A stretch of DNA of 64,000 bases from positions 1 to 64,000 of the forward strand of contig JAEOTC010000154.1 in NCBI GenBank assembly GCA_016840035.1, in the 5' to 3' direction. The notes under the pieces were generated by a model that ran no database searches, had not been told where the DNA came from, and saw nothing but the letters and a program-made list of their open reading frames with translations. The position numbers and the translations under genes were made by a program. This document shows positions 33,623-39,069 of the stretch, in pieces. The DNA comes from Candidatus Hodarchaeota archaeon. Lineage in GTDB: Archaea > Asgardarchaeota > Heimdallarchaeia > Hodarchaeales > Hodarchaeaceae. How positions within the stretch are numbered: position 1 is the first letter of the stretch; every line of letters begins with the position of its first letter.

Positions 33623-34651
33623 TTAGATTTCTGGTTCTTCAGATATTTTCACAATAAGTTTTCCTTTGTTTGATCCGTCAAATAACTTATTAAGAGATTT
33701 CGGTGCGTTTTCCAATCCTTTTACGATTTCTTCTCGGTAAATTAGTTTCTTGGATGTATACCAGAGATGTAAATCCTTGAATGCTTCGTCCATTCTCTTA
33801 AAGTAATCAGTTACAATGAATCCCGAAACGGTAGCTCGTTTGACTAAAATATTAGCAAAATTGTAAGGACCCGCAATTCTTTCTGTTGCATTATATTGAG
33901 AAATTAATCCACAGATTACCACACGAGAATGAAGATTCAAATTTCCAAGAGCTGCATCCAATATTTTTCCTCCCACATTCGCAAAATAAATGTCTATACC
34001 ATCAGGTGCTAGTTCCTTTAAACGATTGAAAACAGATTCTGTCTTATAATTGATAGCTGCATCAAATCCTAATTCCTGTGTTAACCAATCACATTTATCA
34101 TTAGTACCTGCAATTCCGATCACCCGACAGCCTTTGATTTTTCCAATTTGACCAACCAAGGAACCCACTGCCCCTGCAGCTGCCGATACGACAAGAGTGT
34201 CATCTTCTTTAGGCTTACCAATATCTAATAGACCAAAATAAGCAGTTAATCCAATCATTCCAAATAAATTAAGAAAATTAGGTAGAGGAACACCAGGAAA
34301 TGAAGGAAGAATATTCATCCAACCTGAACCATCACTAATGAAATAGTCTTGCCAACCAAGCAACCCTGTAACCATAATCCCTTCCTTAAACCGTGGATTC
34401 TTGCTTTTTATAACTACCCCAATTCCAATCCCTCTCATCACACCTCCTATCTTTACTGGTGGTACATAAGTTTCAACAGGATTCATCCAACCTCTATTGG
34501 TTGGATCAAGAGATAAATAGATATTCTTAACAAGAAATTCTCCTGATTGTAACTCAGGAATGTCGGTTTCAGCCAGTTCAAAATCGGATTCCTTCGTTAA
34601 ACCTATTGGCCGTTGCTTCAAAAGCCACTGACGATTGATTTTAGCGGTCAT
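33623..34651 (-). CDS. NADP-dependent alkenal/prostaglandin reductase-like oxidoreductase
   Basis: YLSLDP..RGWM, GLTAYFGL, VSAAAGAVG, CGLISQYN, GSNKGKL. Confidence 0.92.
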   Translation of the reverse strand: MTAKINRQWLLKQRPIGLTKESDFELAETDIPELQSGEFLVKNIYLSLDPTNRGWMNPVETYVPPVKIGGVMRGIGIGVVIKSKNPRFKEGIMVTGLLGWQDYFISDGSGWMNILPSFPGVPLPNFLNLFGMIGLTAYFGLLDIGKPKEDDTLVVSAAAGAVGSLVGQIGKIKGCRVIGIAGTNDKCDWLTQELGFDAAINYKTESVFNRLKELAPDGIDIYFANVGGKILDAALGNLNLHSRVVICGLISQYNATERIAGPYNFANILVKRATVSGFIVTDYFKRMDEAFKDLHLWYTSKKLIYREEIVKGLENAPKSLNKLFDGSNKGKLIVKISEEPEI

Positions 34652-34854
34652 CTTTATTACTTCAATTAGATAGATATGAAGAGATTTCGAAGAATTATCT
34701 ATATCTATTCCTGAGATTTTCCCCTGAAAACCCCAGGGCTAGTATTGCCGTATAATTTGCTAGAATGTGGTGTGTGGGGTTCCTTTTCCCAGAAGTAAAG
34801 ATTAATAAATATACAAAATCTGTATTTAATTACGTAGTATTGGAGTGATATACA

Positions 34855-34959
34855 ATGCCTCGACCAGTTAAAAGAGTAGACACAGAATCAAAAGAAAAAG
34901 CAACGGAAGATGCAGAAAAGAATAAAGACACAGTTCCCATTTCGAAACATTATTCTTAA
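34855..34959 (+). CDS. Unannotated 34-aa peptide at the head of the JAB-E1-E2-E2 operon
   Basis: GGAGTGA RBS, then MPRPVKRVDTESKEKATEDAEKNKDTVPISKHYS*. Below the ORF-track size cutoff; 41 bp before the JAB gene. Confidence 0.7.
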   Translation: MPRPVKRVDTESKEKATEDAEKNKDTVPISKHYS

Positions 34960-35000
34960 CTTAGACTTTTATCTATTTTTAATCCACATAGGGGATTTAT

Positions 35001-35942
35001 TTGTTGTATTCGCATCAAGAGGAGTCCATTTTCATCCAAATTGATCAGAATACATATGATGAGATGATTAATGAAGGCCTTCTTTGGCCACAAATTGAAA
35101 CAGGTGGAATGCTATTCGGGAATATCATCGAAGAGGAACAGAATCTTGTCATCAAGATTCAAAGAACTTATATCCCTTCAAGTGAAGATTGCATACGTGA
35201 AGCTGCGTATTTTGAAATAGAACCTGAATTTGCAAAAATGATTCTCTCTCAGGAGAGTCTTAAGTATTTGGGCAACTGGCACAAACATCCTGGATATGGG
35301 GGGCCTTCTCAAGGTGATCGAAGGCAAATTCAAGATTTTTTTGGGAATAATCCCCATCTAGATTTTGTTTTAACATTTATCCTTAACTTCCATTCCGATG
35401 CTTTTATTGAACCTATAATTGAGACATATTTTCGGACAGATGAGAATCTAAACTCGGGCCATTCATTTCTAACTCGCTATATCCCTCAAAGCAATCTCAT
35501 ATTCATTCCTTCACAATTAGATGAGCCTAAACCAATAATCCAAACCAGTGGTATTCCAAATGCATTAATATCTCGAATAAAACAAGAACTTGTAAATCTT
35601 TTTGATCATCTTTCTTCCATTGAAGAAATCCAAGAATTTCCTGGGCAAACTCCCGATGAGAAAGTTATTTCCTTTCCCTATACGGTTTTAATTCAGCAAG
35701 AAAAAGTAAACATTTTAATACTGATCTCATTTCCTCCTGAATTTCCTAAAGGAAAAATATATTTTGATATCTCCTCAGAGGATATGTCTAAAGACATTAC
35801 ATTTAAGACTCATCCAGCAGAGACGTTAACCGATCTAGAACTTGTGAGTCCATTCTTAGAAGTGCTTAAATCTGATATCGAGCATGATATCCCAGTGCTA
35901 TTGGAAAAACCTCTCTGGAGAGTTATGCGAGAGAAACTGTGA
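35001..35942 (+). CDS. JAB/MPN+ (JAMM) metalloprotease with C-terminal E2/RWD-like domain
   Basis: IETGGMLFG...WHKHPGYGGPSQGD; C-terminal RIKQELVNL...ISFPPEFPKG. Confidence 0.85.
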   Translation: MLYSHQEESIFIQIDQNTYDEMINEGLLWPQIETGGMLFGNIIEEEQNLVIKIQRTYIPSSEDCIREAAYFEIEPEFAKMILSQESLKYLGNWHKHPGYGGPSQGDRRQIQDFFGNNPHLDFVLTFILNFHSDAFIEPIIETYFRTDENLNSGHSFLTRYIPQSNLIFIPSQLDEPKPIIQTSGIPNALISRIKQELVNLFDHLSSIEEIQEFPGQTPDEKVISFPYTVLIQQEKVNILILISFPPEFPKGKIYFDISSEDMSKDITFKTHPAETLTDLELVSPFLEVLKSDIEHDIPVLLEKPLWRVMREKL

Positions 35943-37189
35943 ATAAAATGAAATTCTTACTTTACCCAGAACTGGAGACTGAATTAGCTAATCTTCCGCT
36001 CAAGGAAAAGATTTTTCCATTATTTGGAAGAGTTTTTGATGATTTTACCGTATTTCACTTTGTTAGTATAACATCTGATATGAAATCTCTTCGACAAATT
36101 GGATATATCTCGAATAGGGAAACTATTACTGATTTTACACTTGATTTTCCATTCATTCACCTGATAGTTGATACAAAACGTCTTGAAGTTACGAAGATTG
36201 CCATCCATAAGAGTCAAGATGATATTGAAATTATAAGAGAATTTGATATTGAAAAAGTAGATTTAAACAGATTATTTGTTCGAGTTGATAAAGCAGAAAC
36301 TCCATTAAATTTACTTCAAACAAAAACTGTAGCTATTATCGGTATGGGGTCGGGTGGTTCTTTACTCGCTTTATATCTTGCGAAAACGGGAGTTAAGAAA
36401 TTTATCCTCATCGATGATGATCGTCTTGAGGTTCACAATATCATTCGCCATATCTCTGACCTTTCACACCTCGGGAGATTTAAGACTAAGGTAGTGGAAG
36501 AATATATTGGTGCAAGAATACCAGATATTGAAATTCAAACCCTAGAACAAAAATTCGTGATACATACTCGAAAAGATGCAGAGTTTTTTTTGAATTTACT
36601 CTCCGATGTGAATCTGCTAATTGCGGTTTCAGGAGAACACGATGTTAATTTTGCTATAAATGATTTTGTACACATTAATAACTTAACCTTACCAGTTATT
36701 TATGCTGGTACATTTGATGGGGTGAAAGGGGGCTTAATGTTTAAAGTGGATCCACGGAAAGATGATATCTGCTATCATTGTGTATATGCCGATTCTTTTG
36801 CTTATCCCTTGACAGACAAAGAGTTAAAAAGCGATATTCCGACAACTACTGAGTTAGAAAAGAAAATTGTTTACGACCGAACCATGCAGGAACAATTAGC
36901 ACAACCAGGATTGGGATTAGATATTGATAATTTGACGATTTTTCTTTCGAAATTCTGCATAGCTACTCTATTAGACGGACAAGAACACGGTTTATACCGT
37001 TTTCCTTTTAATTTTTATCTCTGGTATAATAGAAACGTATTCCAACCGGATTCAGATGAAATTAAGTTTGAAGGCCTTGAACTTCTCTATTATGAGGACT
37101 TAGAGAAAAATGCTGAATGCCCCTTCCATGGAGAGCAGGTTAAAGCAACTTTGAAGGACAGTGATGAAGGGAACTCCCCCTCATTATAG
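35939..37189 (+). CDS. ThiF/MoeB/E1-family adenylyltransferase
   Basis: IIGMGSGG, IDDDRLEVHNIIRH, GRFKT, CYHC...CPFH; GTGA overlap with the JAB gene. Confidence 0.9.
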   Translation: MNKMKFLLYPELETELANLPLKEKIFPLFGRVFDDFTVFHFVSITSDMKSLRQIGYISNRETITDFTLDFPFIHLIVDTKRLEVTKIAIHKSQDDIEIIREFDIEKVDLNRLFVRVDKAETPLNLLQTKTVAIIGMGSGGSLLALYLAKTGVKKFILIDDDRLEVHNIIRHISDLSHLGRFKTKVVEEYIGARIPDIEIQTLEQKFVIHTRKDAEFFLNLLSDVNLLIAVSGEHDVNFAINDFVHINNLTLPVIYAGTFDGVKGGLMFKVDPRKDDICYHCVYADSFAYPLTDKELKSDIPTTTELEKKIVYDRTMQEQLAQPGLGLDIDNLTIFLSKFCIATLLDGQEHGLYRFPFNFYLWYNRNVFQPDSDEIKFEGLELLYYEDLEKNAECPFHGEQVKATLKDSDEGNSPSL

Positions 37190-37212
37190 TTTATAATTAA
37201 GGAGAAAGTTTC

Positions 37213-37647
37213 ATGTCACTTCGTGGGAATTTAATCGATAGGGAAATAGAAAAATTAAGCAAAATCTTTCCCGACATTCAAAAAAGAGACTTTCTACAAC
37301 TTAAGAATAAAAATAAGTGTGTTCAGGTTAGTTTTCTCACAACTGGGAAATATGCATGTGGGCATTTTGATGTTCTCATTGAGTTCCCATACAATTATCC
37401 AGTTGGTTCACCACTCGTCTGGGTTCAAAAACCCAAAATTCCTAAGAATACTCCACATGTATACGGGTGGGATAAAGAGGGACACGCAAGTATTTGTTAT
37501 CTCCGACCTAAGAAAGACTGGCGTTTAAACTATAGCTCATATGAAACGGCACTGATGGTAGAAATTTGGCTTAAAACTTATTGTAGATGGACTAAAACTA
37601 ATGTTTGGGATTGGCCAGAAGCAGGGGTACTTGATCATATATTTTGA
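37213..37647 (+). CDS. Prokaryotic E2/UBC-fold conjugating enzyme
   Basis: EFPYNYPVGSP, TPHVY, ICYL (Cys95), downstream W, W-rich C-terminus. Confidence 0.8.
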   Translation: MSLRGNLIDREIEKLSKIFPDIQKRDFLQLKNKNKCVQVSFLTTGKYACGHFDVLIEFPYNYPVGSPLVWVQKPKIPKNTPHVYGWDKEGHASICYLRPKKDWRLNYSSYETALMVEIWLKTYCRWTKTNVWDWPEAGVLDHIF

Positions 37648-37659
37648 GCTTAAAGATGG

Positions 37660-38073
37660 ATGAATTTAATGAGACGAACCGTCGAAAACGAATTACATGA
37701 ATTAAAGGGTGTATTTCCAGGTTTAACACGTAAGGATTTCTATTATTTAGACAATGGAAATATTGCGGTTCAAGTCAAGTATGCAACAACTGGACAGTAC
37801 GCCCACGGTACATTCACCGTGCTCATTGAATTTCCCCATAATTATCCGAACGCTCCTCCGCGAGCATGGATTATGGAACCAAATATTTCAAGTCGTACAC
37901 ACCACATATACGGTCGGGATGAATACGGACATACTGAAATCTGTTATCTTCGTCCTCAGAAAGACTGGCACTTCACATTTACCTCTTATGATGCTGCAAT
38001 CATGATTCAGACTTGGATTTGGGCTTATTGTCGATGGCGTAAGGTTGGTATTTGGGATTGGAAGGAAGCCTAG
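37660..38073 (+). CDS. Prokaryotic E2/UBC-fold conjugating enzyme (paralogue)
   Basis: EFPHNYPNAPP, THHIY, ICYL (Cys95); aligns without gaps to the upstream gene. Confidence 0.8.
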   Translation: MNLMRRTVENELHELKGVFPGLTRKDFYYLDNGNIAVQVKYATTGQYAHGTFTVLIEFPHNYPNAPPRAWIMEPNISSRTHHIYGRDEYGHTEICYLRPQKDWHFTFTSYDAAIMIQTWIWAYCRWRKVGIWDWKEA

Positions 38074-38217
38074 CTTATCATATACTGAGATTAGTATTCT
38101 TGATAGATAAATGACCTTTTGGTTTCATCTACCAAATTATTCTGCTATTTAAGTAAAAATAGAATTAAGGAAGTTTAAAATAACTAAGGGCATATTTTTA
38201 TTTCCTGAGGATTGCTG

Positions 38218-39069
38218 ATGAAGGAAAAACGTAAATTCGGAAAAATTATGACTACTACGATATTTCTTTTCTTAATTTTCAATGTGATTTATTCTCATCA
38301 AGTTGGTGCTTTCGATGCTTCTCATTTTCAAATTGGAATTAATATTGGTGACACCCATACTTTGGAAATTTACTATATGTACGCTCCAGACTCCCCATTA
38401 GAAAGCGGAGCAAAAATGTACTACAATGTCACTAATATTACTGTGGATACCTGTTATATTACAGAAACCATATTTTTTGCTAATGGTTCTTTATACCAGA
38501 TACAAGACTATAATGATTCTCGAAGTGCTATTAATATGCCATTTTTCTATACCACTATCAATGTTAGTCTTCTATATGAGAACTTTATGGCACCTGATTA
38601 TTTTGTCTCAGTTGATTCAGAATTTATTTACATAGAACAATATACTAATTCATCTGGACTCGTAACTGATGGAATTTATACTTTTCATGCAGCGACAGGA
38701 TGGCTATATTCCTATGTAATGACAATGACCAACGATGGGACTCTCATGATGGAGATAGATATGAGAGATATCAACTATGATGAACCAGTAACCACAACTA
38801 CAATACCGTTTACAACGACTACTGACCCAGAAACCTCAACTGAATATTCAACATCAACAACTGAATATCCGACAACAACAGTCGAGGAAACAACCACTAG
38901 TGATGCTGAGACAACAGAAGAACCCACATCTGACGATTCAGATACAACCAGTGAGGAGAAAACCACATCTTTACCCACTACAATCCCAAGTATAAGTCCA
39001 AGTTCAGGAATTGTCAGCCTAGTAGTCATTGGAATCTTAGGTTTTGTTAATAGAAGAAAGAGAGGATAA
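38218..39069 (+). CDS. Secreted/surface protein with Thr/Ser-rich stalk and C-terminal anchor
   Basis: Signal peptide, T/S/E-rich linker, SPSSG + TM + RRKRG. Confidence 0.78.
   Translation: MKEKRKFGKIMTTTIFLFLIFNVIYSHQVGAFDASHFQIGINIGDTHTLEIYYMYAPDSPLESGAKMYYNVTNITVDTCYITETIFFANGSLYQIQDYNDSRSAINMPFFYTTINVSLLYENFMAPDYFVSVDSEFIYIEQYTNSSGLVTDGIYTFHAATGWLYSYVMTMTNDGTLMMEIDMRDINYDEPVTTTTIPFTTTTDPETSTEYSTSTTEYPTTTVEETTTSDAETTEEPTSDDSDTTSEEKTTSLPTTIPSISPSSGIVSLVVIGILGFVNRRKRG

Follow-up and report, generated by a model that had tools for sequence, protein, structure and literature searches.

A candidate peptide-tagging cassette with CBASS-type E1, E2 and JAB enzymes in a Hodarchaeales archaeon

To our knowledge, cascades of ubiquitin-activating (E1) and ubiquitin-conjugating (E2) enzymes are thought to need a modifier with the ubiquitin fold, the sole exception known to us being cyclic-oligonucleotide-based antiphage signalling systems (CBASS), which use the tail of a whole enzyme. 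Here, we analyse a stretch of 64,000 nucleotides (positions 1 to 64,000 of contig JAEOTC010000154.1, assembly GCA_016840035.1; hereafter, the window) from an Asgard archaeon of the order Hodarchaeales, which encodes a five-gene cassette combining enzymes of the Cap2/Cap3 type (CBASS-type and ATG7-like) with a short peptide. We put at roughly 60% the probability that the five genes form a self-contained system of reversible conjugation in which the free peptide, 33 residues long, acts as the modifier. Among the described systems, the module formed by Cap2 and Cap3 in type II CBASS corresponds to family 6b in Iyer et al. 2006 (PMC1779556). Cap2 adenylates the disordered tail of a CD-NTase (a nucleotidyltransferase resembling cGAS and DncV), which ends GRFA in E. 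cloacae; its E1 cysteine is dispensable in vitro, where the E2 cysteine can substitute for it; its linker, which is homologous to the N-terminal domain of ATG7, positions the E2; and Cap3 cleaves at the CD-NTase tail (10.1101/2022.03.31.486616). The bacterial ISG15-like (Bil) systems of types I and II consist of the ubiquitin-like protein (Ubl) BilA, the E2 BilB, the JAB protease BilC and the E1 BilD, and the known BilA proteins contain one to three β-grasp domains (PMC11601603).

The cassette lies at positions 34855-38073 on the forward strand, where the listing of open reading frames (ORFs) in the window gives five co-oriented ORFs with intergenic gaps of 41, -4, 23 and 12 bp. Together with the neighbouring regulatory DNA, its features are as follows.

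34785..34812, + strand: promoter-like box TTCCCAGAAGTAAAGATTAATAAATAT, AT-rich and conserved, about 45 nt 5′ of the peptide start
34842-34845, + strand: GGAG ribosome-binding site of the peptide gene
34855..34959, + strand: peptide gene, 34 residues, proposed modifier precursor
34960..35000, + strand: T-rich spacer from the peptide gene to the JAB gene
34991-34994, + strand: GGGG ribosome-binding site of the JAB gene
35001..35942, + strand: JAMM/JAB metalloprotease with an extra C-terminal domain, 313 residues
35939..37189, + strand: E1-like adenylating enzyme of the ThiF type, 416 residues
37213..37647, + strand: E2a, 144 residues, E2 family match, Cys-bearing
37660..38073, + strand: E2b, 137 residues, paralogue of E2a, Cys-bearing

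The original prediction, drawn from the letters of the window, had described five tightly packed, co-oriented genes, and coordinates and spacings are exactly as it gave them. Its assignment of the genes as peptide, JAB, E1, E2 and E2 holds in Pfam and PADLOC, which return Prok-JAB, ThiF and CBASS E2 models, and the comparison bears out, in the window as well as in every homologous locus, its view that the operon encodes no ubiquitin-fold modifier, ubiquitin ligase (E3) or cyclase. Clustering of all neighbours in the window and in about 20 homologous loci yielded no β-grasp protein, CD-NTase, E3 or effector, and no conserved cluster beyond the five genes.

With type II CBASS, the cassette shares an E1 nearest to Cap2, whose N-terminal domain aligns with the Cap2 linker region, a JAB nearest to Cap3 and E2s that belong to E2-CBASS; the substrate would likewise be a disordered C-terminal tail, at which the JAB is expected to cut. 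However, CD-NTase and effector are absent from all cassette loci, and no SMODS CD-NTase (PF18144) was found in the 87%-complete genome. Furthermore, E1 and E2 are separate genes rather than fused as in Cap2, the E2 is duplicated, the E1 has no crossover-loop Cys, the JAB carries an extra, Cys-less domain, and the presumed substrate is a free 33-residue peptide ending in His-Tyr. On the simplest reading, for which Cap2 and Cap3 offer a direct precedent, the cassette would be a Cap2/Cap3-type module that has been split into genes and whose substrate tail has turned into a free-standing peptide.

Bil systems resemble the cassette in having separate E1, E2 and JAB genes and a small modifier gene in one operon, but the cassette has no β-grasp modifier: its only small conserved gene encodes 32–52 residues across the archaeal loci and has no Pfam match. 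The modelled enzymes also stand further from Bil proteins, with Z 16.8 for the E1 against 8tyz_A (versus about 21–22 for Cap2 and other E1s) and Z 13.6 for the JAB against 8tyy_B (versus 15.5 for Cap3). The bacterial ubiquitination-like (Bub) systems (6E/DUF6527) differ in that no DUF6527 serine protease or β-grasp Ubl is found among the conserved neighbours of the cassette, and would probably differ in their oxyester chemistry, which uses a Ser where the catalytic position of the cassette E2s is a Cys. The ubiquitin operons of Caldiarchaeum and Asgard archaea share the archaeal host and the set of E1, E2 and Rpn11-like JAB, whereas their modifiers are β-grasp proteins that end in Gly-Gly, often accompanied by a RING E3; the cassette has no such modifier and no RING gene. 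SAMP and Urm1 are β-grasp modifiers as well, and SAMP systems lack the E2s that the cassette has.

In Actinobacteria, Pup is a short, disordered, ribosomally made peptide that serves as a covalent protein tag and is ligated through a side-chain carboxylate by PafA, a glutamine-synthetase-like enzyme, without E1 or E2. The cassette would share with Pup the use of a short ribosomal peptide as a tag, and the ClpB-like AAA+ neighbour of related genes in Bacteroidales recalls the pairing of Pup with Mpa; yet the cassette relies on E1, E2 and JAB, a Tyr would react through its C-terminal carboxylate, and the two peptides have no sequence similarity. Lacking their defining features, the cassette is set apart from CBASS, Bil, Bub, SAMP, Pup and the eukaryote-like archaeal system. 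While its machinery is of a familiar type, the novelty lies in the proposed modifier. It is not among families 6a-6e of the 2006 survey (PMC1779556), and a literature search, from which subscription journals were mostly outside coverage, returned no account of E1, E2 and JAB working with a peptide as modifier, either in general or for Hodarchaeales.

Related loci were fetched through the E1, and each of their ORFs was compared with the five window proteins. The order peptide-JAB-E1-E2(-E2) recurs, with unrelated flanks, in about 20 archaeal loci, which is far beyond chance, and in every one that reaches far enough a short ORF lies immediately 5′ of the JAB gene, which is the feature that the original prediction suggested looking for beside E1 and E2 homologues. 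The window copy of the peptide has 34 residues, MPRPVKRVDTESKEKATEDAEKNKDTVPISKHY plus one additional Ser. In this it stands alone among the close orthologues, the others stopping directly after Tyr33. Across the first nine comparison loci, the peptide is 91–100% identical to the window copy, and in this first set the corresponding values are 43–67% for JAB, 54–71% for E1, 62–90% for E2a and 72–98% for E2b; metagenome loci added later widen these ranges (peptide down to 82%, E1 down to 52%). The peptide is hence the most conserved gene of the cassette, with E2b second. Its variable sites fall on codon positions 1, 2 and 3 as 7, 1 and 29 (29 of the 33 third positions vary), the nonsynonymous rate (dN) is 0–0.07 against a synonymous rate (dS) of 0.44–1.7, and the sense frame is always open from Met to His-Tyr-stop. 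On this pattern of substitution, we take the short ORF to be a real gene under very strong purifying selection; its product is probably disordered. A gene on the opposite strand of the ORF was also considered and rejected: 18 of 32 antisense positions are invariant because that frame shares the third codon positions of the peptide, a conserved start is absent, and internal stops interrupt it in L059 and L060.

The same alignments bear on the idea that the short ORF encodes a regulatory leader peptide, whose translation controls JAB, E1 and E2 through ribosome stalling while the true substrate is encoded elsewhere. Being the first gene of the operon, with a T-rich spacer of 41 nt between it and the JAB gene, would suit a leader, and arrest peptides may be conserved at the amino acid level near their C-terminus. 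Here, however, all 33 residues are conserved, the N-terminus included, with dN/dS near zero, and distant homologues keep both termini and vary in length and in trailing residues. The distance from His-Tyr to the stop codon therefore varies, although an arrest site would need it to be constant, which weakens the idea further, as do the Anaerolineae relatives, in which the short ORF is downstream of the E1, and the lack of an Rfam element (no match in 34600-35100 at E up to 1). We consider a leader peptide highly improbable.

In the distant archaeal cassettes, where the E1 is 36–47% identical and the GC content of the locus ranges from 26 to 55%, the short ORF again directly precedes the JAB gene. 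Its products are listed by locus.

L057: MPRPVKPIDTTEKEKAREDAEGNKKTVPISKHY
L058: MPNPHTQVDTDDPDDADRDAYDEKVDPVGKHY
L060: near-copy of the L058 product
L059: MPRPIPVMKIDVTDEVSPRTDAEGQTNKVPVTEHY
L065: MPRAPEKAFDPDDKDGADKDAKGETNTPRPDHY
L066: ...NTVPVTKHY, then KLIHHV
L067: MPRS...NTVPITHHY, then YYFFNR
L020 (Nitrososphaeraceae): MPRD...TIPNIKHF, then FNDS

Constant across the family are an N-terminal MPR or MPN, an acidic middle and a C-terminal His-Tyr (His-Phe once), beyond which follow 0, 1, 4 or 6 residues that are not conserved. By analogy with Gly-Gly-X, this combination of an invariant reactive end and a disposable tail is the pattern of a ubiquitin-like precursor.

Some of these loci have features of their own. 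L058 (4429-5883) and L060 (1108-1996, 6002-6400), with a GC content of 46–55%, encode a very acidic peptide (MPNPH...KHY) and three E2-CBASS paralogues spread over both strands, and in L058 a SIR2-like gene is near the cassette. A TIR-NACHT-pentapeptide gene is found near the cassette of L059, and a HEPN/nucleotidyltransferase pair near that of L057. At L065:7787-9050, about 1.5 kb downstream and on the opposite strand, there is a large gene resembling LanM (DUF4135 plus LANC_like), whose presence is probably coincidental but noteworthy in view of the modified-peptide reading considered below.

Among 400 genomes of the phylum, the E1 is confined to the window's own family, where it occurs in 13 of the 22 genomes, including that of the window; the peptide is present in 12. 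Eleven genomes have both, about 1.1 kb apart on the same strand, and eight have neither, three of which are 90–94% complete. The three mismatches appear to be assembly gaps: the E1 of G075 begins 765 bases into its contig, G076 has only a partial E1 match, and G073 has the peptide with no E1 matched. In the window's genome, which best matches assign to the Hodarchaeales/Heimdall group of Asgard archaea, the peptide and the cassette enzymes are single-copy. By these counts, the cassette is accessory and restricted to one lineage within Asgard, its peptide and enzymes being gained or lost together, and such patchy presence in a single family of the phylum argues for lateral acquisition over ancestry. 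In metagenomes, a scan with a degenerate DNA pattern for D-T-V-P-[IV]-x-K-H-Y-stop matched four contigs. Three of them continue from the peptide into JAB, E1, E2a and E2b, and the remaining one, of 1 kb, ends inside the JAB gene. Viral contigs scanned with the E1 alignment gave no relative, and proteins in which a JAB is joined to the extra domain are rare: a search of 1.84 billion representatives yielded 23 clusters with an E of 1e-30 or better.

Given that the best matches of all three enzyme types are CBASS components, the cassette could in principle be the decayed remnant of a CBASS or Bil locus that has lost its cyclase or Ubl, the short ORF being a chance frame. Yet its catalytic motifs are all intact and under selection, the same set is kept in about 20 loci (with the E1 down to 36% identity), none of which has a cyclase, effector or Ubl, and the short ORF is the best conserved gene of the set. 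We find this account barely credible and reject it on the comparative data. Neither of two doubts raised with the original prediction is borne out: as regards a deletion remnant, homologous operons never carry a β-grasp Ubl or CD-NTase and always carry the short ORF, and, as regards an E1 in the service of a distant Ubl, the ubiquitin-family genes of the genome each lie beside a different E1. There are four such matches (PF00240), next to three other E1 genes (C184:73863-75070, C3:2122-3922 and C112:99468-100516; L048-L051), each of which adjoins one or two PF00240 genes of 80–155 residues. KaiC-like and Arf-like small GTPase genes are found near the E1 on C184. It is probably at these three loci that this Asgard archaeon encodes its eukaryote-like ubiquitin systems.

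The E1 of the cassette carries ThiF at residues 125-286 (Pfam, E 6.6e-23) and matches the Cap2-type E1-E2 models of PADLOC at up to E 2.5e-26; among the sequences of solved structures, Cap2 is the best match (5.5e-12), followed by ThiF, MccB (E 5e-11) and PaaA (E 1e-10). The nucleotide-binding glycines are present, as is a zinc site formed by Cys278/Cys281/Cys394/His397 (Cys-x-x-Cys...Cys-x-x-His). In the orthologue alignment, the cysteines of this site are the only invariant ones and none is conserved in the crossover loop; the crossover region, modelled with low confidence, is cysteine-free. Structure searches with the model returned UBA3 (Z 22.7), MoeB (Z 22.3), MccB (Z 21.0) and PaaA (Z 19.8), as well as UBA5 and Atg7, and Cap2 7to3_A at Z 21.0 over model residues 1-387. 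The alignments to Cap2 7to3_A (residues 168-600) and to Atg7 span the β-rich N-terminal domain of the E1 (residues 1-115). A reading of this domain as a dead MPN appears unlikely: hhalign against the cassette JAB domain gave only E 0.11 over 7 columns, and the search with the whole E1 model instead aligns the domain with Cap2 and Atg7.

MccB and PaaA are, like the cassette E1, E1-fold enzymes with an extra N-terminal domain, and act on the C-terminus of an adjacently encoded short peptide. With both among its best solved-structure matches, the E1 might act in their manner on a product akin to ribosomally synthesized and post-translationally modified peptides, giving a peptide-nucleotide or cyclised compound from which the JAB would remove a leader or tail. 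We regard this as distinctly improbable. One to four Cys-bearing E2 genes, which would be roleless in such chemistry, are always present in the cassettes, whereas the MccB and PaaA pathways have no E2 or JAB; those pathways need a C-terminal Asn or Glu-Glu-Asn, with MccB chemistry requiring the Asn, and the peptide ends in His-Tyr. They make antibiotics that are exported by dedicated pumps, but no transporter or exporter, immunity gene or other tailoring gene is conserved beside the cassette. Furthermore, conservation extends over the whole peptide and does not divide it into a conserved leader and a variable core, and the extra domain of the E1 is matched to the Cap2 linker region and is not singled out as a peptide clamp.

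We co-folded the E1 dimer with peptide residues 1-33, ATP and Mg in three runs and with three controls. The interface score ipSAE (interaction prediction score from aligned errors) was 0.43 (runs 0.33, 0.48 and 0.43) against 0.00 for the best control, with at least 52% of contacts shared between runs and a predicted local distance difference test score (pLDDT) of at least 40 for the partner. In calibration, 58 of 80 solved complexes attain the pass mark, against 2 of 110 mismatched pairs; passes at ipSAE 0.60 or below, however, comprise only 7 of the 80 solved complexes and both mismatches, and the tool itself cautions that such a pass is mostly mistaken for any guess that was not already likely. 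The co-fold thus lends weak support to E1-peptide binding; by itself it weighs little, yet it agrees with the comparative evidence.

Both E2s match the CBASS E2 models of PADLOC, and their orthologues carry PF26395 (E2-CBASS). A profile of 20 cassette E2s matches UBE2W at E 6e-4 with the region of the catalytic Cys aligned, H-V-Y...G-H-x-x-I-C of the cassette corresponding to H-P-H-V-Y-S-N-G-H-I-C of UBE2W. E2a and E2b share the motif H-[VI]-Y...G-H-x-x-I-C-Y-L-R-P, which corresponds to UBE2W's HPN-Cys region, and the catalytic Cys is kept in at least 90% of cassette E2 sequences. These family matches, with the cysteine in register, support the UBC-type identity first proposed for the two ORFs. 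E2a and E2b are 47% identical to each other and, because they form separate orthologous groups in every complete locus, the duplication is, judging from the sequences, older than the spread of the cassette within its family. The one to four E2 genes of the distant loci suggest that the E2s supply target choice in the absence of an E3. In addition, E2a ends in a conserved tail, PEAG-x-x-[DN]-H-x-[FL], to which some orthologues add R or RG (1–2 extra residues) and which is absent from E2b and from the single E2 of L059. This tail could be a pseudo-substrate or a second conjugatable tail. Its His-aromatic end loosely recalls the K-H-Y of the peptide.

In the 313-residue JAB protein (model pLDDT 84), Pfam places a Prok-JAB domain on residues 17-112, and PADLOC likewise matches a JAB model; the structure model divides into a JAMM/JAB part (residues 1-170) and a Cys-less α/β C-terminal domain (residues 183-313). 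The JAMM residues E33, H94, H96, S103 and D106 are invariant among the orthologues, and the protein combines the E...HxH...S..D zinc motif with structural matches to the MPN fold, the two hallmarks of JAMM/MPN+ proteins. Cap3 9ild_A is the best structural match (Z 15.5, root-mean-square deviation 2.3, 135 residues aligned), and Cap3, P. furiosus JAMM1 (PfJAMM1) and Rpn11 all score Z 15.0–15.5. The C-terminal 130 or so residues are modelled as a helix, a 4-5-stranded sheet and further helices, and contain a conserved FPPEFPxG motif and no cysteine. They match the Tsg101 UEV domain at Z 6.2, amid unrelated folds of like Z, and hhalign against the cassette E2s gives a weak signal (E 0.008, probability 5%) that aligns the motifs FPPEFP and FPYNYP. 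Neither this domain nor the N-terminal domain of the E1 has a Pfam match in isolation. These signals from hhalign and structure are too weak for an assignment to the E2/UEV fold, and we describe the domain of the JAB protein as possibly UEV/RWD-like.

Taken together, these enzymes and the peptide allow a pathway to be drawn, of which we infer every chemical step as well as the targets and the biological role. The peptide would be transcribed from its own promoter: the box upstream of it can be aligned across 10 loci, in contrast to the intergenic DNA around it, and is by inferred function a putative archaeal TATA box and B recognition element (TATA/BRE). T-runs occupy the position of the spacer between peptide and JAB genes in all aligned loci, and this T-rich spacer may act as a partial terminator that leaves the peptide in excess over the enzymes. 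The JAB would then remove the residues after His-Tyr (one Ser in the window, up to six elsewhere), and the adenylation site of the E1 would bind the exposed tail, giving a peptidyl-Tyr33 adenylate. Because the E1 has no conserved catalytic cysteine, it would fall to the catalytic Cys of either E2 to attack the adenylate directly, with the E2 positioned by the N-terminal domain of the E1. The resulting E2 thioester would hand the peptide to an amine, most likely that of a lysine, on targets without involvement of an E3, and the JAB, possibly guided by its C-terminal domain, would reverse the mark. A self-contained peptide-tagging system was the interpretation offered by the original prediction, and it gains support from the purifying selection on the peptide, its co-occurrence with the E1, the His-Tyr with its variable tail and the promoter-like box of its own.

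Several points weigh against peptide conjugation. We know of no precedent for a C-terminal Tyr in an E1 substrate, the known ones ending in Gly, or in Ala or Gly in the case of CD-NTases. The window copy itself ends in Ser rather than Tyr and would therefore require trimming or a tolerant E1. No lysine is conserved family-wide except the one before His-Tyr, which leaves chain formation unsupported. The co-fold offers weak backing, with a pLDDT of about 40 for the peptide itself, and two domains, at the C-terminus of the JAB protein and at the N-terminus of the E1, are only weakly assigned.

A different division of labour has to be weighed, in which the peptide would be a cofactor, a regulator (a pseudo-substrate gating E1 or JAB) or a lysine-rich acceptor, and the E1 would activate the tail of another protein, encoded elsewhere or within the cassette; the E2a tail ending D-H-x-F is an example. 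The Cap2/Cap3 lineage indeed conjugates a full-size protein through its tail, the loose likeness of the conserved E2a tail to the K-H-Y end of the peptide speaks for such a donor, and the co-fold backs E1-peptide binding only weakly. However, no other conserved partner gene exists in the roughly 20 loci, and an invariant His-Tyr with 0–6 trailing residues fits an activated C-terminus and not a regulator. The acceptor variant is weakened by the lysines, which are not conserved in distant homologues, and the variant with the E2a tail by E2b and the single L059 E2, which have none. We judge this alternative unlikely and retain the free peptide as the more probable modifier.

Bacterial relatives of the E1 (24–33% identity), from Bacteroidales, Anaerolineae, SAR202 and a cyanobacterium, likewise have JAB and E2 genes as neighbours, together with a short ORF, hydrophilic and 56–82 residues long, that has an aromatic end (for example, ...RPFYTN, ...EPYFA, ...DGYAA, ...RKRRAWY or ...RKRRAWYGRT). 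Homology between these ORFs and the archaeal peptide could not be demonstrated; the parallel suggests a wider class. Within it, the archaeal MPR...HY branch is found in Hodarchaeales, Nitrososphaeraceae and other archaea. We would place an even bet on a class of 'mini-ubiquitins', ribosomal peptides of 32–67 residues without a β-grasp fold that would be activated at an aromatic C-terminus by a Cap2/ATG7-like E1 and passed through an E2 thioester to targets, with the JAB both maturing and erasing the tag.

The Bacteroidales loci, from metagenome-assembled genomes, form a conserved operon (L023:5906-11934 and similarly in L025-L044) of a JAB of about 350 residues, an E2 of about 150, a short ORF of 56–67 and an E1 of about 419, then a ClpB-like double AAA+ ATPase of about 750 residues (PF07724) and an SH3 membrane protein of about 245. 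Their short ORFs, which have aromatic ends such as RPFYTN, EPYFA or DGYAA, form a single family by alignment. The E1 of L034 and L035 exceeds the usual length by about 65 residues (482–487 residues), and a separate short ORF is not seen there; from the sequences, the ORF may be fused to the E1. By its gene content, this operon looks like a tag-plus-unfoldase system, of which the literature, again with subscription journals mostly outside coverage, yielded no description, and the pairing of tag and ClpB-like unfoldase in this bacterial branch suggests tag-directed unfolding or degradation. In the two Anaerolineae loci (L024:8878-9126 and L027:1985-2329), the short ORF is downstream of a shorter E1 (304 residues) and closes with ...RKRRAWY at one locus and ...RKRRAWYGRT at the second, which again makes an aromatic end that may be trailed by a few residues.

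As to the role of the archaeal cassette, a part in defence or stress may be indicated by the CBASS lineage of the enzymes, by the patchy distribution and by the TIR-NACHT, SIR2 or HEPN-nucleotidyltransferase neighbours of some distant loci. Against it speak the ordinary metabolic flanks in the window and in close relatives, and a constraint on the peptide far above that usual for defence proteins. None of the cassette enzymes is as conserved as the peptide, a trait that it shares with ubiquitin and that suggests contacts with many partners. If the peptide is indeed a modifier, the ubiquitin fold would be dispensable and a tail alone enough, widening the notion of a ubiquitin-like system, and a minimal, easily synthesised tag would become available for mechanistic work and protein engineering. 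Hodarchaeales are close to eukaryotes in recent phylogenies and central to debates on eukaryote origins, and the cassette enzymes share their lineage with ATG7, ATG3 and ATG10. The set of one ATG7-like E1 and two dedicated E2s resembles the layout of autophagy conjugation.

In the window, the cassette is flanked by a quinone-oxidoreductase-like gene on the opposite strand and by genes for a DUF998 membrane protein, a Thr-rich anchored protein and a MoxR ATPase, none of which has an evident tie to it. As the flanks also differ between homologous loci, the initial description of them as unrelated stands. Directly 3′ of E2b, the gene at 38212-39069 encodes a 285-residue protein with a signal-like N-terminus, a low-complexity stretch rich in Thr, Ser and Glu and a C-terminal hydrophobic anchor, with no Pfam match. 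It probably lies outside the cassette, because a related protein is found, at some distance, in L011 only (cluster c20).

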